DNA of 49,818 nucleotides, filler included, from Jimgerdemannia flammicorona (Eukaryota), in NCBI GenBank assembly GCA_003990765.1. It is 2 parts of 2 records of this genome, joined end to end, with 100 filler letters (N's around TTAATTAATTAA, not from the genome) between each part and the next. Parts side by side here need not be neighbours in the genome. Positions count along the whole stretch, not along the records: positions 24,966 to 49,818 come from RBNJ01000911.1; 1 more part is not named here. One strand, written 5' to 3'. Below the pieces are notes generated by a model. The model worked only from the letters and a program-made list of their open reading frames with translations, did no database searches and had not been told where the DNA came from. Numbering within the stretch: position 1 is the first letter of the stretch; each line of letters starts with the position of its first letter. A program made the position numbers and the translations under genes. This document shows, piece after piece, positions 5,599 to 49,818 of this stretch.

Positions 5599-6418
5599 TC
5601 ACCTCAACCCATTATCATTATCCTCATCCTCCCCAAGCTCCCGATACCTCCTCACGGGGGATCCAACAGGTGTCTCGACAGGACTAACGACATCCTGCGT
5701 CACAATCATCTGAGCGACGCTCGCCCTAGGCAGGAACATATATTCCGTCGCGCCCGTCACGGTCTTGGGGGGCTCTTTCCCAGGCTCCGCGTGCTCCTCA
5801 TGGGGCTCTTGAGCGCCAGCATCAGACTGGTACGATCCACGATATCCCGCCGGGTAAGGGTCGTTCGCGAGTGCGGCTGGGAGCGGGAAGCCATCTTTCG
5901 GGAGGCTGGGTACCGGTGGTGGGGCGTCGGAGGTTCGGTAAGTGTCTCTGTACCTTCGGGCGGGCATAGCCGATGGAGGACGAGAGGAGACAGAGAATGG
6001 ACGATCTGGGTCCTCCTCATCGTATCCGTCGAGGAAGTCGTTGTCGTACGGTTCGTCACCACCCTCCTCGTCATCGTAGTACCCGCCTTCACCCTGATCG
6101 CCCTCCATCATGTCCGCGTATTCGCCGTATCCGTCGAAGCCGTCCTGTGTCTGGCGGGCGGAGGCGGAGGAGTGATAGCGTGGGTCGCGGGCTGGGTAGG
6201 ACATGTGGTCGAAGCGCGAGGAGGCCGGACGAGCGTCCGAGGAGCGACGGGAGGCTGACGCGAAGGAGTCGCGGTTCGGGTCGTCGATTGTGGGGTTGTG
6301 GTCCTGGTCGTGGTCGTGGTCCTGGTCCTGGTCGTGGTCCTGGTCCTGGTCCTGGTCGTGGTCCTGGTCCTGGTCGTGGTCGTGGTCGCGGTCCTGGTCG
6401 CGGTCCTGGTCGCGGTCC

Positions 6419-6455
<37 letters not shown>

Positions 6456-8432
6456 CGTGATCGTGGCCGTGTTCGTGATCATGATTGTGATCATGATCGT
6501 GATCACGATCGTGCTCGTGCTCGTGTTCGTCTCGCTCGTCGATGGAGTGCGGGTGCTGTACAGGGGCGCTTGAGCCGCGCTCGGGGGTGTAGAGTTCCGA
6601 GTATCGGAGCGTGGGGTCCTCAGATTCGTCTAGTAGCGGGGACGACGAGGGTGAGACGGTTGTTGTTGTTGCAGTCGCGACTACGCCTGCGACGACGACG
6701 GCGGCGGTCGTGACGCCTGCGACGGCAAGAATGTCTGAACCAATATTTAGGCCCGACGAGTACCGTTTCGGTGAGAGCGGGGCTGGGTCGGCGAATGGCG
6801 TGGTGGTGATCGGGTCGGAAGGTCTGCGCTGCTGTGGCTCGAGGGATCTTGATTGAGCCAGCTGTGGTTCATAAGGTTGCAGGATCGGTGACAAAGGTTG
6901 TTCTGATTGTTCCGCCTGGTGTGCTGGCGGTTGCGGCGGTGGTCCAGAAGGCGGCGGACCCGGTGGCGGCGGAGCAGGTCCCTTTGACACAGGTTCCTTG
7001 AAGAATGAGTCCTGCGGTACGAATGGTTTCGTGAGCAGCGGGGAGCGCGGGAGGCTCGAGTACTGCTGGTGTGTCATTGGGGGTGAGGCTGCGTTCCTAT
7101 TCATTTCTGGATTGAAGGGGTCGGTGAGGGAGGGGCCCTCGACCTTGAGATGTGGGGCGGGGACGGGGGCGATGACGTTGCCAGAGTTGAAGAGGTCCGA
7201 TGGCGGGCGCTGGGACATTGAGCCGGTGGAGAGAATACGGCTTGATGATGGGCGGGAGGAAGACTTGGGCTCGTCGAATCCATGCGCGACGGAAGAGCGC
7301 AGTGCATTGTACGACCCGCCAAGCAGCGCAGAATCCTTCTTGGGCTTCCCCTTCTTCATATATGCGAACAAGAAGTACCCGACCCCGCCCACAGCACACA
7401 CGACACCGGCGCCGACACCCGCCAACACGGGTGTGGATAGCCCTTTAGGCGCCGTGGTTACCGTTGGTGAGACTGAGTTTGTTGGGGAGGTGGCGGAGAG
7501 AACAACTGGGGTTGTTCCCGTTGCGGTGGCCGAGGGACTCGAGCTGACGCGGGAAGACGTGGTGTGGGTTGAGCTGGCTGCGTGAGACGCTGAGTCGGCA
7601 GAGGCAACATCACGGGGAGTGGTGGCGACGCCCTTCGCATTGTTGGCAACAGCGTGGCTCGAGCTGGCGCTCGTGGCGGCTTTAGGGATACCGCTGCTCG
7701 CGACGGCTTTGGAGGCACCGCCGCTCGCGACGGCTTTGGGGCCACTGCGTTGAATTGGGACAGGAGAAGTCAGGTCTTTACCGGTGGCAGTGCAGGCCGC
7801 GAGGATCGAGGAGATGTACTGGATTGAGGTGGTTATTGTTATTATTATTATCATCATTATTGGAGAAGGGTGTGAGAAGGAAGATGTGGGAGGTTGGTTA
7901 GAAACTTTGCTTGGCTGAGGCGATAAAGATACCGTCGCAGTTCGCTTTTGTACGCTTTTTTTTTTTTTGTCTTAGAATTATTCTTGTCAATCGCCCACAA
8001 CCTTCAAACAAGCTACAATATGCATCAGCTCCCCTATTCGTCACACAACACCTCTTCCGTAATATCGACAATCCGATCAATCAACCGCTACATCTAATTC
8101 ATTGTCACCGTTCCTTTATATATAAGAAAAAATAAAAAAATAAACAAATACGCTACGAAACCACCTACGTTAGCGTTCCCGTAGCAACTCGTGCATGTCG
8201 CCAGGTTGTCGATGTAGGTCTGGTTGCAGTACGCCTTTGTACAGGTGGCACTCTCGTAGTTGGCAGAGCACTTGGCCACAGTGGCGAACATAGTGCTGCA
8301 TGCTTTGTTCTGAGGCTGGCAGGCTGGTGCTGGTGCAGCGGTGACGATGTTGGCGATGGCGATGAGGACGAGAAGGATGGGAAGGTTCAAGAGACGGCGG
8401 TGGGTCGCAGTCCCATGGTGCGACGCGACCAT
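5599..8432 (-). CDS. Type I membrane protein with Wsc/Mid2-like cell-surface sensor architecture
   Basis: Exon 1 (8432-8169) encodes a signal peptide and a Cys-rich domain. A GTAGGT...CAG intron spans 8168-7819. Exon 2 (7818-5599) encodes a Ser/Thr/Ala stalk, the TM helix VLAGVGAGVVCAVGGVGYFLFAYM followed by KKGKPKK, a Pro-rich tail, an HD/QD repeat and an acidic region. Confidence 0.8.
6298..6530. repeat. Coding hexamer microsatellite (GTCGTG/GTCCTG on +) encoding (HD/QD/RD/HE)n on the minus strand
   Basis: Tandem tggtcg/tggtcc units are visible directly and are in frame in the 752-aa ORF. Confidence 0.95.
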
Positions 8433-24865: not shown

Positions 24866-24965
24866 NNNNNNNNNNNNNNNNNNNNNNNNNNNNNNNNNNN
24901 NNNNNNNNNTTAATTAATTAANNNNNNNNNNNNNNNNNNNNNNNNNNNNNNNNNNNNNNNNNNNN
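24866..24965. other. Artificial assembly/concatenation spacer
   Basis: 44 N + TTAATTAATTAA (stops in all six frames) + 44 N = 100 nt. Composition changes abruptly across it. Confidence 0.95.
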
Positions 24966-38235: not shown

Positions 38236-38590
38236 ATAACCTGTTTTTTAAAAACTCGATCTTTTTGAAAATCTGATCTTTTTGAAAATCTGATCTTTTT
38301 TGAAAACCTGATTTTTTTTGAAACCAAATCTTTTTCAAAAACCCAATCTTTTTTAAAAACTCAACTTTTTTCAAAAACCTGACTATTTTTAAAAACCTAA
38401 CCTTTTTTGAAAACCTGATCTTTTTCAAAAACTCAATTATTTTTAAAAACCTAACCTTTTTTGAAAACCTGACCTTTTTTGAAAATCTGATCTTTTTCAA
38501 AAATCTGACCTTTTTAGAAAACTCAATCTTTTTTAAAAATCTGACCTATTTTAAAAAATTTAATCTTTTTAAAATATGATCTTTTTGAAA
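38236..38590. repeat. Minisatellite of ~18-22-bp units (TTTTTGAAAAYCTGAYC-like)
   Basis: More than 15 degenerate tandem copies between element C and element B. Confidence 0.9.
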
Positions 38591-38608
38591 GACTTGTTCT
38601 CTATATAT

Positions 38609-40841
38609 TGTGATGTCTACAATCGACCCTGTCCAAATTCGGAGTATCTTGTGACCACAAGATCAGATGACATTATGGTGTGATAACTGGTAACTAGCCC
38701 AATCCGTCAAGTGATTTCACCAAAAGAAGACAAGATGATCCAAGCCAAAATGAAGACCATGTTATTTAAGAAACTATACTCTGCCTCAGGGATCGGCACC
38801 AAAAGAACAAGTACTCACTACACAATGCCTCCTATCCGCTGCCCCAACCAGACCTCCTGCCGCTCTTCCCCCTTGCCTGGCCCAAAGACTCAAATCTTTG
38901 AAGCTATCAAGAAGGCCATCTGGTGCCCAGATACTTCTGAACACTTGAACTTCTATACCGAGGACCTTGGACACTTTATCAACTACCGGTATATAATGAC
39001 CCATCAGCTCAAAGACACTACCGAACGAATGACCCTCTGGCATGACTATGAAATCGGACACCGCCTTTGCAATGAGACTCAAGAAGATGACCAGGAAGGC
39101 CTCATTACCGAATTGATAACCACTAGCTGGCTAATCAAGAGAGCCCTCTGTGTCTACCAAATCTTCTGCCATATTCTCTGGGCCATAGCACACTTGCAAG
39201 GAGTAATGGCTGGCAGTCTCTCCTGCCTTTCAACTGAAGATGCTGACTAGATAGAATCTGAAGTAGCCAACGCTATTGGCAACAACTGCATCGCCATAGG
39301 AAGCCAATAAACCGAACCTACTCAGCCAGGTTTCCACACCACCCCACTCTGAGACAACCATCAAGGTCACCTAATGAGTCTTATGGAGATATTTGAAGGA
39401 CTGCCCATTACCATAGAAGCACTCATTGGAGCTACCCCAACCACCCACCACCTTGTCAGCCACAATTCACACCTCATCATTTGGAAACCAAATCAAGAAG
39501 AAGTCCAAGAAGTTCCTGTCTTTGAAGAGGAGGCCCAAGAACTCCAAGGCCCTGCCTCTGAAGAAACCCCCTCTGACACCAAAACTGACAAGTCTTCAGA
39601 AGAAGAAGAGGAGCAACAGAGAGTCTACCAGTCCTCTGTCCGCATTCAAGCAGTTCAGGGATTGGAAAATGTTGTTGAAGATGACTGGCTACTTTTCTAC
39701 CCCCTCACCTCTTGGCTGGCACTTCCCCCCTTTGAGGAGAGATATGATGAAGAAGAAATCACAACCCAGCAAGATTTGCCCACTGCGGATGAAGGGTACT
39801 ATTCCCTCTAGAGTACCGCCCATCAGCCGTGAGAACTCAGCATTTTTGTCAGCAGGTCTGAATTCAGCATTGCCACCCTCCACAACCATTTCTGGCAATA
39901 ATCATCGTATTATGTCAGCTCATCCAAATCCAGCATTGCTACCCAGTACCACCATTTTCAGCATTTTATCAGCAGGTCCAAATCCAGCATTGCTATCCCC
40001 TACAACCCAATCCATAGTAAACAATAGCCTGCACCTTGCATCATGTAAACCAATAGCATAAGTTCACCACAACGTAGTATACCTTAGCCTTAGTCGTGCC
40101 CCCCCCCCCCATAGCTAGCAAACTTGTATAAATAACCTATATTCTTAGAGTGAATAAACCTCAGTCAGACAGTTTTACAGAGAAAACACACTGCCTCCAA
40201 GAGACTGGATAAATTCTGAGAACAAGATAACAACCTAGAGCAATAGATCACTCGGAAGTTTGAGTTAAAGAATTTTCTCTTGCCATGGAAAGAAAACATT
40301 ACTCGACCACCATTCGAGACCCAGCCAAGGATTCAAGACTATGACCGCTGTGCATTCAGACCACCATTCGAGATTCAAGACCCAGAAACCCAGGGATACC
40401 CAGCCAAAGGATACTAGACTGCCAAAGACCAATCTGCTGCCAAAAGACCTGAACGACCACCAGAAACCTTTCAAGTTAACAAGTCAAGATGGATGAGCGA
40501 GCCATCAACCTCCATTTTCCCAACCTACTGTGCCACGCACCACTTAAAGTCAAGACTGTCACCCGCTTCAAATCGACCATATATTCTGCTAAAGTCTATC
40601 ACCACCGGCACACCCAAGTAACTGCCCTCTGTTAGCAACAACACCTTTTTCCACTGAATATTGAGCCACCATCGTTGAACAATCTCTCGCTATTATCAAT
40701 TACCGCACGAATCGAATGAGCCAATCACGTGATCAATGACCCGCGAACATCACCAATGTATTCAGTTATCCATTGCGCACTTCACCAGTGGCACACATTG
40801 AGCCGTGCAGTCGAAGTTCATTATACATAACCAATACCACA
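38609..40841 (+). repeat. 5' LTR of element B (~2233 bp)
   Basis: TGTG...CACA termini. It matches 48720-49818 over the available length. TATAAAT at 40127, AATAAA at 40153, PBS directly after. Confidence 0.9.
38711..39811 (+). pseudogene. LTR(U3)-encoded ORF of unknown function, ~367 codons in the two-LTR consensus
   Basis: ORFs 38711-39250 and 39374-39811 share a frame. The three intervening stops are sense codons (TGG, CAA, CGA) in the 3' LTR copy. Confidence 0.75.
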
Positions 40842-40844
40842 TTT

Positions 40845-40862
40845 TGGGGGCTCCAATGGGAA
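40845..40862 (+). promoter_or_regulatory. Primer-binding site, tRNA-Pro-like
   Basis: TGGGGGCTCCAATGGGAA lies 3 nt after the LTR end. The first 9 nt equal the canonical tRNA-Pro PBS start TGGGGGCTC. Confidence 0.75.
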
Positions 40863-40910
40863 AGTTTTCAAAAGACTTGACCATTTGGCTCAAGAACCCA
40901 GCTATCTACA

Positions 40911-42800
40911 GTGGAGAACTTAGCAGGACCAAGTCAGCAACCAAACCAGGGGCAGCAACAGCCCTCCTCAGTAGAAAAGAAAGCCCACACCCTTGTCAGA
41001 ACAGTAGCCAAGACCCTACTCAACACCAGTAGTCAGAAAACCGAATCAGAAGAAAGAAGTGACCCAGATTATGGTTTGACTTCAAGAGAAAGGAGACAAC
41101 TCAGAGGGCAACCAGAACTGCCCCTTCAGATCCAAGACTTAGGTCAAGAAGAAGAAGAGGATATCCCTGAGGAGTATCAGACCCTTATCCATAGGAAGAA
41201 CTCAGACAGAAGTGACTACATAACTACTGTTGTTACTCGAGTCACTCCACTAGACCGAGTATACTTTGAAACATCAGAAAGAGAAGAGGACTATCATCCA
41301 TATCAACCAGAACAAGACAATGATTGGGAATCAGACCATCAAAGGGACAAATTCAACCTATACTATTATCCAGACAGCAACACTGACCCACAACAAGGCA
41401 AACAAGACTTCACTACTTCACAACAGCAAGGGGCAGACGAACTCACTATCAGTTATATCAGTCCACTCCCACCATCAGTTGCTCGAACTTCAGTACTCTG
41501 GTCACTCACACCTCGCCACTATCACCAGTCTATCAGAAGATCTCCACCACTACCCAGGACTTCAACCCCAGCATTAATTAGAAGAGCCAGATTACCCTCA
41601 CCCTCACCAAGACACCACCCTCTGCCAGCACCACTAGTTCATCAAGTACTAGCACCACCACCTTTCCCATCACCCTGAGGATCCGCCAGACCCCCTACCC
41701 CTGAACAATACTCAGATAGTGAAGATGAGCCAGACATGAGCTATCTTCAGAAGTTCCATGGTACAGATAATGAAGATATCGAGGAATTCTTTGGAGAAAT
41801 TGAAGTTCAAGCAGCCGCCAAACAATGGAATGCTGTGAGAAAACTCAGAATTGTGGATTCGCTCCTGAGAGGACCAGCCCTACAGAGGTATAATCAAGCC
41901 AAGCAAGCTGGAGGAGAAATCCATGCAGAGGAACTAAATGACAGCCTTCAACCTGATAGGAACTATGTAGCAAGGTACATGATTTACAAAGCCTGGCTCC
42001 ATGCCCAGTTTAATGGATTTGAGCGCCAACAAGAAGCACAGGAGGCTTTGACCTACATGAGCCAAGCTGCCAATGAAACTCCCAAGAGTTTCTACCATCA
42101 GATTCAAGCTCAAATGATCAAGGCGAACCTTCAACCAGCAGTCCAACTGGCCCTAGCCTCAACTACCTTCCTCAATGGCTTATACCCAGAACTCCAAAGA
42201 TAAGTTATCAGGATGGGATATCAAAACATTGAACAGCAAGTTGCTGGAGCACAAGGATGTTGGGAAGCAGATTATAGATCAGTACAACAAGTACAAGGCT
42301 ATCCTGAGCCAATCCGAGCTGAAAACCCAAGGACCCGAGGAACAACCATGGAGCAAGAGAATGCCTTCCTCAGGGCCCAGATAGCCAACTATGAGGACAG
42401 ACCAGCACCCACAAATCCGACTCCATTCAGGCAACCACAGCAGCAGCCACCATCAAGAGTTCAAGAAGACCCCATGACAATACTCACTAAGCAAATGAAG
42501 GACCTGGCCATTGTGGTTGCCCAGCTGAACAACCAAGGTAGAAGACAACAAGACTACTGTCGTGATAACAGACCAGACTACTGGCAACAAGACAACAGAG
42601 GTCCTGCCCCTGCACTACTAGCTGCAACTACAGCCTCATCAGTGACTGGTTCCTATGGTCCCACCTACTTCAGCTGTGGAAATCAAGGCCACATCCAGAG
42701 GAATTGTCCAAGGAACCAATCCACCCAGTCCAATGACAGAAATGTCAACCTCTTTCAGGTAGATGAAGAGACTCAGGAGATGGAAGAAGAAGCAGCCTAG
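40911..42800 (+). pseudogene. gag: gag of element B (Pro-rich leader, capsid, zinc knuckle)
   Basis: Same-frame segments start at 40911, 41736 and 42213. Motifs KFHGTDNEDIEEFF, LRGPA, FLNGL and the decayed knuckle (Y)FSCGNQGHIQRNC. Confidence 0.88.
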
Positions 42801-43359
42801 CTCCATGGTCAAGAAGATGACATCTACCCGTATTTCGAGGCCTTTCCATCCAAGGTGACATGGGAAGCTGCCCCAGCAGAGACCAGAGGACGAGGAAGAC
42901 CACGAAGGAACCCCCCACCTCAACTGCCAGTAACAATATCCACAGACAAGCATCCGCGATATGGCCATTCTTCTTCAGACACTCCACAAGAACAGGAGAA
43001 GTGAGTGAGAAGAGATACCCCTGAACCAGAAGCCGGACCATCTAGGACAACCCCCAGCTCTACTCTGCCAGACCTTGAAGAAGATGAGCATATGAGCATA
43101 GAATCTTCAGCTGATGAAATGCCCATCAGGGATGAGAGACTACACCCCAAGGGACTAAGACACTGAAGAAGCAGCAAGCCCTATGCAGCAGCCTCACTTT
43201 GGGAACATATCTGCCTATAGAATGCTGGTCTTACAGTTGAGCAAGTCCTCAAGAATGCACCAGAGGTCAGGTGAAAATTCCTGAAAGAAGCCAAGGAAGA
43301 TACTAAGAGACTTCCAGTCTAAGGGCCACACACTCAAGAACCTAGTACTATCCACACAG

Positions 43360-43770
43360 TCCATGAGAGCCAGCGACATGAACATCAATCTACAAGACTC
43401 GCCAATGGAAAAGTACATGGTGAAAATGCCAGAATTCTCGTCGATACTGGAGCAGCAGTATGCATCATCACCCAAAGGATGTTGGAGTGAATTGGATGGG
43501 GAATAGATGAAGGAACCAAAGCAAGAGTTATCATGGCCGACGGATCAGCTTCCACACCCCTTAGACTTGTCAGAGACATTCCCATTCAAGTTGGAAAGGC
43601 CCGCCTCAATGTACCCAAAGCCATCGTGACCCCCACAACCTCCTATGACCTGATCCTGGGAACTGACTGGTTAAGCCAAGTTGGAGCCAATGTAGATATC
43701 AAGAAACAACTTCTGGTCTTCTTCATTTATGGACAGAAGCACAAGGTGCCCATTGACTCGAAAGGATTAT
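43360..43770 (+). pseudogene. Aspartic protease of element B
   Basis: ILVDTGAAVCII (D at 43443), MADG and DLILGTDWL, in the same frame as gag. Confidence 0.9.
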
Positions 43771-44864
43771 CCAAAAAAACGAATCAAGCCTCAGAAACAG
43801 AATGGCAAGGACATGGTGACACCCCCACTACTACTGAGGATGAAAGCGAGGCCAATTTCCTACAAAAACTAGGAAGTGATTTCGATGCCCCAAGGGACCA
43901 AGAAAGAGAACAAGAAGACTCTTTTGTTGGAGTTATTGGTGTTGAAGGCCTGGAAGAAAGCATTGATAGAGCCATTAATGCAAGGGCAGCACTTGAGTTT
44001 GCAGGACCTTCTGCTCAACCACCACCACCACTGGTAGAAAATCAGATCATGCGAGCCTTTCATTGAGGCATATGTGAACATTTCATCAGCTTCCACTCAC
44101 CAAGAGATGATTGCAGCAATTGCCGAATCCTGGATCTCAAGAAGGTTCCAATGCCAGAAATTGACAACAAGGACAAATTGAAGCAAGTACCATCCCACAG
44201 CCGAATACAACCTCCAACCCCGAAGACCTTCAAGAAGATCTATAAGGAAGGACAGAAGATCCTCACCTGCCAAACATTTGAGTCCCTTACCATCGAAGGA
44301 GAAAGCAACAGCTCTTACACTATCACCTGGGCCCTCCAGATCACACAGCCCACCTATGACAAGTATCGGAAGAGATTCCCCACCAGTAGGGAGGTCAAAC
44401 AGTGAAATGAAGACTTTGTCAAGAAGGGACATTGTAATTGTGGAAAAACCTTTACCTGCTACTGGTGTGAACATCGAGATGTTCATCTCAGCGAAGATGT
44501 CTACAAGAGCTGAGTCAAGAGAAAGGACCCCACCCTGCAAGAACCTTGAATTCGCTGGGCCTGTCAGAAGTGCAAAGAAATCAACCATGAAGGAGACTGC
44601 AAGTTCAAGAGCAAGACCTCTATCTGGGACCTACCATTGAAAGTTCTTGCCATCATTCACTGATACTGCCACCCTCATCAAGGAAAAGAAGGTATCAATC
44701 TTGCCTTCATCCTTATGGAAGCTCTGGACTCTCTAGGAAAGACTGGATTCAATTACACAAGAAACTCAAAGACAGGAGCTCACTGGCCTTTCTTCAAACT
44801 GGAGCGCATGGACTTCTCACCTACAATGGCAATGGCTGAAGCACCATTTCTCAAAGCTCAACCA

Positions 44865-45275
44865 ATTATCCAGATCAAGCTGCTTTCACCCTGGGTACAG
44901 CCACCTCTTGCACAAACAGAAGGATCAGTTGGTTATGACCTCTGCCTCCCCTACCAAGCAAGAATCCGACCCAGAAGTACCAGGACTTTTGACCTACAGA
45001 TTGCACTTGCTATACCACCTGGGCATTATGGACAGTTGGCCTCAAGATCCTCATTGGCAACCAAAGGAGTCACAGTAGAAGGAGGAGTCATTGATCAGAA
45101 CTACTGAGGTCCCCTGAAGGTCATTATCCGCAATTCTAGTAGAACCAGCCAATTCTTCAGTCCTATGGAAGCCATCTGCCAAATCCTGTTTATCAAGACA
45201 TCATAGCTGACCATCCAAGAGGTAGACCAACTAGAAGATACCAACAGAGGACAAGGAGGCTTTGGAAGCACCAAT
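44865..45275 (+). pseudogene. Trimeric-type dUTPase domain within the element B polyprotein
   Basis: All five motifs are present: GSVGYDL, ASRSSLA, GGVIDQNY*G, ICQILF, RGQGGFGST. Two stops. Confidence 0.93.
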
Positions 45276-45839
45276 AGAAATCTATGGACACCACCTATCG
45301 AGGTTCATTTGGCAACAGTTGCTCAATTCCGACAAATGAGACTCCATATCTGCTGCCCAATCCGAGCAAGAGAAGACATCCTCCTGCAGCCCTACTAGCA
45401 AAAAGGCCTAGATGTGCACCTACTAGTAGAAGCAAACAACTTGATATTTGCACCATCACTGGAGCTTCAAAAGGAATACCACATCCTCCTGGCTGAAGAA
45501 TGAATTCATGACCAGATGTCACCAATCCACATCCCTATCAGAAACTCGGGCTTCAAAGTGATAACTATCCCCAAGAGAACAACACTGGGATATTTCGAAC
45601 CACTGATAGACACCTATGAGGAAGAAGTCTTCGAATTCTTGGGAAATGGCAAGCCCTCTCTGGTGAGACTGACGGTACCAGGGAGGAAGACTCAGCAAAT
45701 TCAGCAATCAAAGCCGTCGACATCGAGACAACTCTAACCAAGGACCAGCAACAACAAATACAGGAGTTGATAGAAGAGTACAAAGATATATTTACCACCA
45801 TATATGATAACTTCCCACCATATCAATACAGAGAACACT

Positions 45840-48393
45840 CTATACATACTGGAGATACAAGACTAATCCGACAATGACCCTACCGAATACCACATCATCT
45901 GATTGAATTCGAACAACAATACATAGATGAAATGCTACGAAATGGAGTCATCAGACCATCATCAAGCCCCTGGGCTTCACCAGCAATCATAGTACCAAAG
46001 AAAGGAGGATGGAGATTAGTCGTGGATTTCAGAAAACTCAACAAAGTCACCACAGAAGATGCCTACCCACTGCCAAGAATTGATGATCTCATCAATGCCC
46101 TTGGAAAAGCCAAAGTCATGACCACTACCGACTAGTTCTAAGGATTCCAAGTAATACCCATTGCCAAAGAAGATATCTGCAAGATAGCCTTCATCACCAG
46201 ATGAGGACAGTATGAATACCTACGAATGCCCTTTGGACTCTGCAATATGCCCGCCTCATTCCAATGAATGATGAACTATGTCTACCGGGACCTCATTGGA
46301 AGAAATATACTAGTGTACATAGATGATGTAATCATCTACTCTGAGACATTCAAGCAGCATTTGCAAGACCTCCATGAAGTATTCAATACCATTCGAAATT
46401 CAGGACTCAGACTCAATGCCAAGAAGTGCTTCTTTGGAAAACATCAAGTCGAATATCTGGGATATATTGTCTCAGCTCAAGGAACACATGCCAACTCCCG
46501 CAAGGTGGAGAAAGTCAAGAACTACCCAACCCCGACCTCAGCAAAGGAGATCCTATCCTTCCTTATGCTAGTATCCTACTATCGATGATTCATCTCAAGG
46601 TTTTCAGATAAGGCAGCACCTCTCTGAGATATCTCCAAGAAGGACCAACCATTCTACTGGAAAGAAGAACAACAAAAGTCATTCGACCTACTCAAGAAGG
46701 CTCTTACCGAAGCCCCTGTCCTAGTGTGACCGGACTTTGGCAAACCATTCATCCTGACAACTGATGCCTCAGCCTTAGGACTTGGATCAATTCTGTCTCA
46801 GCAAGATGACCAGAAGAGGGAGCATGTTATTGAATATGCTAGCAAGGCCACGAATGAAACACAAGCGAACTATGGAGCCACTAAGTTGGAATGCCTAGCA
46901 GTAGTTTGGGCTATGGACCACTTCTGACACTATCTCTTGGGAAAGAGATTCGCCCTCATCACTGACCATCAAGCTCTATAATGGTTGTTCAACAAGCCAG
47001 AGCCCTCAGGAATCTTCGCTAGATAGATCATGTCTCTGCAAGAATATCAGTTCACTATTGTCTACAAGAAAGGTGCTAAGAATTCCAATGTCGATACCCT
47101 GTCAAGAATCCCACGAAACTAACAAGAAGGGAAGGAGCCCCCACAAGAGAAGGCTACTTCCCACTCACCCAAATGAACCAAGAATTGTGCCTCGCCCTTA
47201 CCTGGAGTCTGCACCATAGAAGCTTCAAGAAAGGAATCCAACCAGTCCACAAGTTGTTTATCCAAAGGAATCTCAAGAAATTCCAAGAAGGCGATGGTGA
47301 ACTTTGGAGAGTAGAAGGAGAGCAGTATACCCAAGTTCTAAGAGAAGAAGAAATATTGAAGATCCTGACAACAAATCATGACCAAAATGCATACCGAGGA
47401 ATTGGTGCCACAATTGCAAGAATCAAGAAGCGATACTGGTGGCCCAAGATGAGAAAACAAATTTCAATGCACATTCAACAATGTGATACATGCCAAAGAT
47501 ACCGACAAAAGCCTACCAACAGAGCACCATTAATACCAATCGCAGCACCAGCTGGAGCCTTTCAAAGACTAGGAATAGACATTATTGGACCTCTACCAGT
47601 AACCAGCTGAGGAAGACGCTACATCCTCACTATTGAAGACCACCTGACAAAATGGCCCGAAGCCTTTGCCATCGAGACTGCCGATGCCCAGACAATTGTT
47701 GGGATCCTGTATGATGAAATTTTCAGCTACCATGATGTGCCCAAGGAAATCATTACAGATCAAGACCGAGAATTCGTCAACCAGGCCATGAAGACCTTTG
47801 CAAGCAACTTCAAGATCAAGCTACAACAAACAACAGCCTACCACCCACAGGCAAATGGACTCACTGAACGAATGAACCAGACCATCAAGCGAGGTCTCAG
47901 TAGAACCGGAGATCAACTAAACTGGGATATCTATCTACTGGCAATTCTGTTCAGCATCTGTACCTCTAAAGCAACTGCTACCCAACAGACCCCCTTCTAT
48001 TTGGTGAATGGCCAAGAAGTACAAGATCCTACTGAACCAGTCCAGCTAGATCTGTCAAAACGAGTCACAGAAGAGATCACCCGGTTACATGACATACGTC
48101 AGCAAGCACAAGGATTTATCGCCAAGGCACAAGAACAACAAAAGAGGTACTACAACCGCAAAGCCGACCTCGAACCCCTGCTCATTGGACAAAAGGTTCT
48201 GGTGTACCGTACCATCATAGAAGGAAATTGGAGTATCAAGCTTGAACTAAAATGGGAAGGCCCCTATCTCATACACCAAGTATTCTCAAACCACACTTAT
48301 CAACTCAAGACCTTGGATGGAGTTATCCTCAAGACCAAGATACACTGCAACCGCATAAGACTCTACTACTCAAGAGAAGCAAAACGCATTTGA
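45840..48393 (+). pseudogene. pol: RT - RNase H - integrase of element B
   Basis: SSSPWASP, VDFRKLN, YPLPRID, MPFGL, YIDD (46316), TDAS, ITDHQAL, WWPKM..CDTCQ, GIDIIGP, TDQDREF, YHPQANGLTERMN and KWEGPY. No chromodomain seen. Confidence 0.95.
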
Positions 48394-48709
48394 ACAAATT
48401 CTGTTCACTCTGTCTGTATCATCTCCATTGGAGATATGATGGACATTTCACTCGGAACTCAAGAAAGCCAACAACATTGGAACCAGACTCAAGCCCATCC
48501 ATGTGACAGATATTGTTACTAAGAAATTGCCTCAGATTACAAGTAATACTATTTCCAATGGGTTTGAACCCCCAGCCGTGACTATGGGAGCCCTCACCCT
48601 AGACAAGGATGGCCAGTCCTCACAAATACACCGACATTCTGCTCATCCCTGGAGTTAAGACCACCCAACTCTGTGTAACTCTCACCACCAAGGACGGCTC
48701 TAATTTTGC

Positions 48710-48719
48710 AAGGGGCAGA
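48710..48719 (+). promoter_or_regulatory. Polypurine tract of element B
   Basis: AAGGGGCAGA immediately precedes the TG of the 3' LTR. Confidence 0.75.
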
Positions 48720-49818
48720 TGTGATGTCTACAATCGACCCTGTCCAAATTCAGAGTATCCTGTGACCACAAGATCAGATGACATTATGGCATGATAACTG
48801 GTGACCAGCCCAATCCGTCAAGTGATTTCACCAAAAGAAGACAAGATGATCCGAGCTAAAATGAAGACTACATTATTTAAGGAACCATACTCTGCCTCAG
48901 GGATCGGCACCAAAAGAACAAGTACTCACCACACAATGCCTCCTATCTGCCGCCCCAACCAGACCTCCTGCCACTCTTCCCCCTTGCCTGGCCCAAAGAC
49001 TCAAATCTTTGAAGCTATCAAGAAGGCCATCTGGCACCCAGATACTTCCGAACACTTGAACTTCTACACCAAGGACCTTGGACACTTCATCAACTATCAG
49101 TATATAATGACCCAACAGCTCAAAGACACTACCGAATGAATGACCCTCTGGCATGACTACGAAATCAGACACCGCCTTTGCAATGAGACTCAAGAAGATG
49201 ACCAGGAAGGCCTCATTACTGAATTGATAACCACTAGCTGGCTAATCAAGAGAGCCCTCTGTGTCCACCAAATCTTCCGCCATATTTCCTAGGCCATAGC
49301 ACACTTGCAAGGAGTAATGGCTGGCAGCCTCTCCCACCTTTCAACTGAAGATACCGACTGGATAGAATCTGAAGTAGCCAATGCTATTGGCAGTAACTGC
49401 ATCGCCATAGGAAGCCAACAAACCGAACCTACTCAGCCAGGTTTCCACACCACCCCACTCCGAGACAACCATCAAGGTCACCTAATGAGTCTTATGGAGA
49501 TATTTGAAGGACCGCCCATTACTATAGAAGAACCTGTTGGAGCTACCCCAACCACCCACCACCTTGTCAGCCACAATTCACACCTCATCATTTGGGAACC
49601 GAATCAAGAAGAAGCCCAAGAAGTTCCTGTCTTGGAAGAGGAGGCCCAAGAACTCCAAGGCCCTGCCCCTGAAGAAACCCTCTCTGATACTGAAACTGAT
49701 GAGTCTTCAGAAGAAGAAGAGGAGCAACAGAGAGTCTACCAGTCCTCTGTCCACATTCAAGCAGTTCAGGGATTGGAAAATATTGTTGAAGATGACTGGC
49801 CACTTTTCTACCCCCTCA
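48720..49818 (+). repeat. 3' LTR of element B (partial)
   Basis: Colinear copy of 38609 to ~39707, differing mostly by transitions. Confidence 0.95.

Follow-up and report, generated by a model that had tools for sequence, protein, structure and literature searches.

Long terminal repeats (LTRs) are regarded as control regions without coding function, and as a matter of routine they are masked before genes are called. The closest described system in which an LTR also carries a gene is that of mouse mammary tumour virus (MMTV), the sag gene of which is an open reading frame (ORF) of about 320 codons. This ORF is situated wholly in U3, ahead of the TATA box; each LTR has a copy of it, and the enzymatic core can do without it. 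The foamy-virus tas/bet genes and the lentiviral nef gene are accessory 3' genes that start in the internal region and merely overlap U3. Lineage-specific accessory ORFs also occur in Ty3/gypsy elements, where they occupy the internal region, on the LTR side of gag or of pol; those of plants (aORFs) were reportedly described by Steinbauerova et al. in 2011. The window analysed here, the whole 49,818-nt stretch of DNA from the fungus Jimgerdemannia flammicorona, contains at 38609-49818 (+ strand) most of a ~12-kb Ty3/gypsy retrotransposon, and the LTR of this element holds a frame of 328 codons. With a probability of roughly 0.8, this frame is a real accessory gene of a fungal Ty3/gypsy family that lies wholly in the LTR, has intact relatives and is under purifying selection, the copy in the window being dead.

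The frame in the two LTRs

The two LTRs start at 38609 and 48720 (both with TGTGATG...) and pair without gaps over 1099 nt (38609-39707 with 48720-49818), with 66 differences (94.0% identity). In the frame 38687-39811 the 5' LTR contains the stops TAG 39248, TAA 39308 and TGA 39350, where the 3' LTR reads TGG, CAA and CGA; conversely, the stops of the 3' LTR in this frame, TGA 49137 and TAG 49290, correspond to CGA and TGG in the 5' LTR. All five stops are private to one copy and each is a single transition away from a sense codon, which confirms the complementary pattern described for this DNA in an earlier sequence-only reading. During reverse transcription one template gives rise to both LTRs of an element; as the stops are private, the frame was open when the element inserted. 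Its occurrence in both LTRs indicates that it was copied along with the LTR at the last transposition, and its position wholly inside the LTR implies that it is copied into both LTRs in every round of reverse transcription.

The ORF (Table 1) occupies LTR positions 217-1203, entirely within the 2233-nt repeat and 316 nt upstream of the TATAAATA box at 40127; its final 104 bases can be read in the 5' copy only. The start is placed at 38825, giving 328 codons and a stop, because the homologues P0002, P0003, P0007, P0011 and P0020 and the ORF of the related DNA locus L001 (described below) begin there. The 46 codons upstream of 38825 have no counterpart in any relative, and the length of about 367 codons given in the sequence-only reading is reduced accordingly. 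That reading had also noted that the frame is open from 48609 across the LTR junction up to a TGA-TAA pair, which was found to be the case; a longer ORF from 48609, upstream of the LTR, is ruled out, as the pair is shared by both LTRs and closes the frame. A longer upstream ORF in L001 was likewise rejected, the matching upstream ATG being out of frame and its own frame being closed by a stop.

Downstream of the TGA-TAA pair the ORF frame contains no stop that is shared by the two copies, compared with 20 and 16 in the other two frames (1099 shared bases). In composition-matched first-order Markov simulations of the LTR (n = 2000), a 329-codon stop-free stretch was obtained in 0/2000 cases and a frame with three or fewer stops in 12/2000 (0.6%). 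An open frame could in principle be a chance product of the T-poor composition of this strand: the + strand is poor in T and G, and an overlapping 214-codon frame (39417-40061) is also open in the 5' copy. However, the simulations, the existence of homologues at 29-95% identity with conserved starts and the distribution of identical bases over codon positions (p = 3e-5; see below) reduce the probability of this explanation to a negligible level, the homologues having already refuted it.

The overlapping frame at 39417-40061 is offset by +1 and coincides with the part of the ORF encoding the acidic tail. It is lysine-rich, as expected for GAA/GAG runs read out of phase, and in the 3' copy it is open over the first 97 codons. 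An antisense frame of 114 codons (38786-39130), together with weak antisense matches to L001, is read as a by-product of sense-strand conservation.

Relatives and selection

Naturally intact relatives were used in place of a reconstructed consensus. A word-indexed search of 5.8 billion protein clusters produced a sole match, P0002, an intact protein of 325 residues with 75% identity (E 2.9e-149). Its cluster comprises six members, three of them full length (325, 324 and 331 residues) and three partial; the C-terminal end of the 331-residue member, P0007, is like that of the window copy. At the sites of the three stops of the 5' copy, the proteins of this cluster read W, Q and R, the same as the 3' LTR. 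An exhaustive HMMER search of 1.84 billion representatives produced nine matches, four of them at E<=1e-10; P0010, P0011, P0012 and P0015 are 29-36% identical and P0016 matches over a short stretch only (46%). The first residue of P0011 aligns to residue 47 of the window read-through, and the matches at 29-36% identity start from the same Met. Further intact relatives have 342 (P0011), 247 (P0012 and P0018) and 246 residues (P0020).

Taken with their cluster mates, the HMMER matches define a family of at least four subfamilies, and two further profile searches yielded no additional ones. The subfamilies share a Met-Pro start, an acidic tail and the motifs LN..(D)LGHF, W(H)(D/E)YEIGH, HQ(I/V)FRH.P and D(N/T)....(L/M)...(L)...FEGPPI, and the start is conserved among homologues over the whole range of 29-95% identity. 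All of the relatives originate from JGI/ENA environmental assemblies (contigs of 567 to 4848 nt and one of 19.4 kb) and are unnamed or labelled 'hypothetical protein'; none from an annotated genome source was found among the 5.8 billion clusters and 1.84 billion representatives. P0005 is encoded on the 19.4-kb contig and P0011 on one of 4.8 kb. At the DNA level, a scan of metagenome contigs identified a single related locus, L001 (1535 nt), and scans of viral contigs and of genome contigs identified none. The ORF of L001 is open for 291 codons and its protein is 32% identical to the window copy.

Over 277 aligned codons of the window copy and L001, identical bases at codon positions 1, 2 and 3 number 131, 155 and 105, respectively (position 2 versus position 3, p = 3e-5). 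The uncorrected Nei-Gojobori pN/pS is 0.65-0.75 and the Jukes-Cantor correction gives a dN of 0.69-0.81 against a dS of 1.6-2.9, where the synonymous sites are saturated, so that dN/dS is only an upper estimate and roughly bounded. This pattern is that of purifying selection on the protein across the divergence of the subfamilies, as judged from the aligned codons. When L001 was divided into six-frame pieces (n = 35), the ORF frame alone matched the element significantly (E 3.7e-25 and 2.9e-23), and the ORF is therefore the conserved part of a U3 that would otherwise be expected to evolve fast. The intact relatives and the conservation at the protein level bear out the proposal of the sequence-only reading that a real protein-coding gene lies inside the LTR, upstream of the TATA box. 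Of the findings that this reading had named as counter-evidence, neither fixed stops or frameshifts nor a dN/dS of about 1 was encountered: stops and frameshifts are not fixed in the independent copies, and the dN/dS between subfamilies falls below 1.

Conservation of this kind could also be derived from a host family if the ORF were a passenger, i.e. all or part of a host gene that the LTR had taken up and that is of no use to the element. The capture of host sequences by LTR retrotransposons is general knowledge and is mentioned in the accessible part of PMC5408684, and the protein has neither a link to gag or pol nor an assigned function. Against this, no relative from an annotated genome source was found in the databases searched, all of them being on short environmental contigs; in addition, two lineages that are only ~32% identical have the ORF in the same placement relative to the 3' end of the element, and the purifying selection spans the subfamily divergence. 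A passenger origin is therefore regarded as improbable, and a gene belonging to the element is preferred.

The copy in the window is dead and has decayed neutrally, as has the rest of the element. Of the 66 differences between its LTRs, 63 are transitions, mostly in CpG and CpA/TpG contexts, and 16 adjoin another differing position, which looks like methylation-dependent deamination or a process similar to repeat-induced point mutation rather than ordinary drift. The 52 differences inside the ORF are spread 19/15/18 over the three codon positions, and five codon differences create or remove stops.

The LTR in other samples

Four sequencing runs, X1-X4, were compared with the element; three are soil metagenomes of one study and one is of an organism. 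Contigs on the LTR and leader at >=80% likeness number 517, 42, 66 and 6 in the four runs. One contig of 792 nt extends over 38989-39780 with 53 differences and no gaps, another of 364 nt covers 39426-39782, also without gaps, and contigs of X3 (records 17-22) cover parts of the ORF. These contigs indicate that the ORF-bearing LTR is common in those samples and that its reading frame is kept.

Relative to the window, the X1 contigs show 66 T>C and 30 C>T differences, and G for A is likewise commoner than the reverse. This environmental excess of C and G over T and A in the window implies that the window copy has suffered C-to-T and G-to-A decay. At the stop position 39308, C (CAA) is present in all four X1 contigs and both X2 contigs among the variants listed.

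Proposed promoter and expression

A TATA-like TATTTAAG box precedes the ORF, and no ATG lies between this box and 38825, the ATG of which is in a good fungal Kozak context. In L001 the sequence TATAAAAG is located ~75 nt before the ATG, likewise with no intervening ATG. The occurrence of TATA-like boxes and ATG-free leaders in two distant lineages, the window element and L001, is the basis for proposing that the ORF has a promoter of its own.

Further downstream, imperfect direct repeats resembling enhancer repeats of U3 lie between the ORF stop and the TATA box (39838-40007). One X2 contig skips 70 nt of them (39841-39912) and one X4 contig goes back within them (39998-39909); Tandem Repeats Finder did not score this region. 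The core block that follows, at 40110-40164, is matched by contigs of X2, X3 and X4, which diverge after 40164 or before 40107-40120, and it would represent the main promoter and a poly(A) signal situated in U3 or at the U3/R border. A similar arrangement of the poly(A) signal is known from retroviruses with short R regions.

These motifs suggest a model in which each LTR has its own promoter, ORF and poly(A) site and so forms a self-contained cassette. The TATTTAAG box, ~55 nt upstream of the ATG, would start an mRNA of ~1.4 kb that ends at the LTR's own AATAAA (40153), and genomic RNA would come from the main promoter with TATAAATA at 40127. On this model, which is given somewhat less than an even chance, 5', 3' and solo LTRs could all express the gene.

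Alternatively, the gene could be real and have no promoter of its own, being expressed as the 3'-terminal ORF of a genomic or spliced subgenomic RNA that runs through the U3 of the 3' LTR, in the manner of nef or sag; this is the route put forward in the sequence-only reading. It is general knowledge that this U3 is part of every full-length transcript. Moreover, a short block upstream of the polypurine tract (PPT) is conserved between the window and L001: positions 10-53 of L001 match 48590-48632 of the window (blastn, 77% over 44 nt, E 0.004) and are collinear with it, the distance from this block to the ATG of the ORF being 346 nt in the window and 366 nt in L001. It is the only non-ORF DNA common to the two, and in it a pyrimidine tract is followed by TAG and then by ATGGCC. 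The phase of the short frames starting at the ATG of the block is not conserved, and the block may be a splice acceptor or some other cis element; as a possible acceptor, and joined to the ORF in the single L001 contig, it favours expression from an upstream transcript. On the other hand, six ATGs would precede 38825 on such a transcript, of which two (38613 and 38667) lie in another frame, one (38675) opens a frame of two codons and three (38735, 38750 and 38759) are in frame, and several upstream ATGs are present in L001 too. Further points against this route are the TATA-like boxes that both lineages carry 55-75 nt ahead of the ATG, the failure to identify a splice donor and the possibility that L001 is DNA. 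Expression from a 3'-terminal position without a separate promoter is thus a tentative alternative that is less likely than the cassette model.

A third arrangement would place the start of element transcription upstream of the ORF, so that the ORF would be the first cistron of the genomic RNA, within an R/U5 leader of great length. In favour of this, the LTR has its TATA-like box (38763) only 155 nt from its start, and without such an arrangement R and U5 would already amount to ~680 nt. However, the canonical TATAAATA followed by AATAAA (40127-40158) is part of the block common to the X2, X3 and X4 contigs and has the enhancer-like repeats just upstream of it, and a transcript from 38795 would be expected to end at the poly(A) signal 1.4 kb downstream. 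This arrangement is considered quite unlikely, and the self-contained cassette is retained as the working model. A comparison of the 3' end of L001 with the TATA/AATAAA block of the window was unconvincing as to homology.

Structure and proposed function of the protein

AlphaFold2 modelling of the L001 protein with a 19-row alignment predicts an all-helical domain over residues ~17-165 (pLDDT 70-96), with which a model from a ten-row alignment agrees. This domain is followed by lower-confidence segments around FEGPPI and then by a disordered tail, and the models are of moderate confidence overall. The tail has a net charge of -9 to -32 and 21-38% D+E in 15/15 tail-bearing sequences, without conservation of sequence; at its end, acidic runs precede hydrophobic motifs of the P/W-L-F/V type, and F/W/L motifs are present in the alignment. 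There is no hydrophobic segment, the maximum Kyte-Doolittle 19-residue mean being <=1.25 in the natural members.

A search of the window pieces against Pfam identified no family at E<=0.01, and ten members of the family produced only two single-member chance rows (E 0.044-0.046). The PDB sequences gave 0 matches at E<=1. Structure searches with Foldseek gave best E values of 0.35-0.4 against the PDB and 0.07 against BFVD, and VIA-align over 48,161 chains gave best Z scores of 3.2 and 3.8; neither tool brought up a DNA-binding fold. A usable match was likewise missing from the ESM Atlas, and comparison with the gag pieces of the element showed no relationship. The combination of AlphaFold and Foldseek proposed with the sequence-only reading, here applied to natural family members, therefore yielded a helical N-terminal domain and no usable fold match. 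The protein probably represents a new family.

Acidic activation domains such as those of VP16, Gcn4 and foamy-virus Tas resemble the tail, as do acidic SUMO-interaction motifs. By analogy, the helical domain could dock on a factor of the host or of the element, with its acidic-hydrophobic tail recruiting host machinery. An adaptor of this kind, most simply a transcriptional activator of the LTR comparable to Tas or Tax, is a possible role that is put forward with reservation; a role as an antagonist of host silencing appears less likely again.

Several observations weigh against the interpretation as a functional LTR gene or against the role proposed for it. Various members of subfamily A carry Arg-to-Cys/His/Trp changes typical of decay, and the sole X3 contig over 39308 (depth 2.2) reads T, like the window; the saturation of synonymous sites noted above belongs here as well. 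Residence in an LTR is established only for the window element, and for L001 it would follow from the 44-nt collinear match. The proposed transcript starts, ends and splicing derive from motifs that could be due to chance. As regards function, the near-neutral N-terminal domain (pI 5-7 in most members) does not point to DNA binding, none of the proposed roles is backed by a fold or family match, and the acidic-activator role is a best guess that draws on a general resemblance.

The element and its surroundings

The features of the element are listed in Table 1. The order gag-PR-dUTPase-RT-IN (PR, protease; RT, reverse transcriptase; IN, integrase) lies between the repeat pair and contains the PR-RT-IN order by which Ty3/gypsy elements are recognized; the internal genes are all split by stops. 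A dUTPase between protease and RT is reported for some fungal, rotifer and planarian Ty3/gypsy elements in the accessible parts of PMC2864245 and PMC6431247. The 5' LTR most likely ends at 40841, because of the CACA inverted terminus and because one X3 contig (record 23) matches up to 40841 and then diverges; as the 3' LTR ends outside the window, this position is not confirmed by the LTR pair. No tRNA or Rfam matches were found in the window.

Table 1. Coordinates of features of the Ty3/gypsy element in the window.
Feature	Position	Strand	Remarks
5' LTR, 2233 nt, TGTG...CACA ends	38609..40841	+	Start set by repeat with 48720; end putative
TGA-TAA pair in ORF frame, both LTR copies	38681..38686 and 48792-48797	+	Closes frame against internal region
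TATA-like box TATTTAAG, 55 nt before ORF ATG; candidate own promoter	38763..38770, second copy 48874-48881	+	
LTR-embedded ORF, 5' copy, 328 codons and stop	38825..39811	+	Broken by TAG 39248, TAA 39308, TGA 39350
Imperfect direct repeats, CAGCATT x5 and CAGCAGGTC x2, between ORF stop and TATA box	39838..40007	+	Enhancer-like U3 repeats
Core block, TATAAATA 40127-40134 and AATAAA 40153-40158	40110..40164	+	Putative main promoter and poly(A) signal
Candidate primer-binding site (TGG...), 3 nt past the putative LTR end	40845..40860	+	From sequence only
gag-like ORF pieces, stop-broken, weak zinc knuckle	41679..42800	+	zf-CCHC E 0.0038, below Pfam cut-off
Aspartic protease piece	43491..44066	+	RVP_2, E 4.9e-05
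dUTPase piece, protease-RT interval	44664..45107	+	PF00692, E 1.9e-14
Reverse transcriptase pieces	45878..46588	+	RVT_1 E 3.2e-15 for 46268-46588
Integrase (zinc-binding domain and core), two ORF pieces	47080..48393	+	Integrase_H2C2 E 2.1e-16; rve E 7.1e-09
Conserved block ~90-130 nt upstream of PPT, common to distant locus L001	48590..48632	+	blastn
Polypurine tract adjoining 3' LTR	48708..48719	+	
3' LTR, first 1099 nt (window end cuts rest)	48720..49818	+	94.0% identity to 5' LTR; PPT precedes
LTR-embedded ORF, 3' copy, first 294 codons	48936..49818	+	Broken by TGA 49137, TAG 49290

Genes for a HIRAN-SNF2 helicase and a fungal Zn(2)-Cys(6) protein are among those flanking the element and identify the host as a fungus. 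Taxon information from the Atlas gave no clear host assignment, with a single row leaning towards Basidiomycota. An 18-nt tandem array (38244-38594; 19.8 copies, T/A-rich) abuts the 5' LTR, and copy-number joints of this array are seen in X1 and X2 contigs. Between 30001 and 36000 the + strand is strongly purine-rich (G 2132, C 886; GC skew 0.33-0.46) and long ORFs without a Pfam match are present on both strands; this region may be another decayed repeat. Two runs of 44 N bases (24866-24909 and 24922-24965) are located in an AT-rich stretch (GC 0.28-0.37 over 24-30 kb). A host ORF of 790 codons at 5599-7971 (-) contains a long tract of His/Asp dipeptide repeats (HDHDHD..., DQDRDQ...) and is without a Pfam match.

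Comparison with known systems

In the parts of the literature that were accessible, the term 'LTR ORF' refers chiefly to MMTV. Searches of an open-access full-text library, which did not extend to the supplements of PMC2864245, brought up no description of a gene located within an LTR, either for Ty3/gypsy elements or for fungal ones. The backbone of the present element, with a dUTPase between PR and RT, is the same as that of PosPlaTy3-5 from Postia placenta, and dUTPase-bearing fungal Ty3/gypsy elements reach over 13 kb according to the available sections of PMC2864245. The legend to Figure 3 of that article marks an 'add. ORF' without assigned function in some fungal elements, for which the text, as far as it is available, gives no location and which could be an earlier sighting of the LTR gene. 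The bdelloid ORF3s (PMC5408684, in the accessible part) and the plant aORFs are akin to the LTR gene in being lineage-specific accessory ORFs of Ty3/gypsy elements; the LTR gene differs from both in its position inside the repeat.

Such a position has consequences for the gene. It is doubled at every insertion and survives whole in solo LTRs once the element is lost, and it escapes genome annotation, its relatives all being unnamed environmental proteins. One speculative extension, to which a rather low probability is attached, is that any LTR of the family, even a solo LTR, constitutes an autonomous gene, complete with promoter, ORF and poly(A) site, and encodes an acidic-tail adaptor that boosts LTR transcription or blunts silencing. 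If this were true, it would be the first LTR-embedded accessory gene outside retroviruses, as far as the literature searched goes, and 'dead' solo LTRs across fungal genomes could still supply a factor in trans. If the protein regulates transcription or silencing, it would offer a new handle on the contest between fungal retrotransposons and host defence, with solo LTRs as trans-acting helpers.

Among the retroviral accessory genes, foamy-virus Tas has a C-terminal acidic activation domain and its expression is driven by an internal promoter, features to which the proposed activator and cassette would correspond, but tas/bet and nef have their starts outside the LTR and no homology with them was found. 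The likeness to MMTV sag is closer in position and size, whereas Sag, the product of a vertebrate betaretrovirus, is a type II membrane glycoprotein and the protein described here has no hydrophobic segment. There is no homology between the two, all nine HMMER matches belonging to the protein's own family, and the host is a fungus and the element a Ty3/gypsy retrotransposon. Since the protein has no homology to Sag and is not a membrane protein, the resemblance is one of design and position and not of membership. The locus would thus extend the complex-retrovirus design represented by sag, nef and bet to a fungal Ty3/gypsy lineage, by means of a protein family without a known fold or domain.

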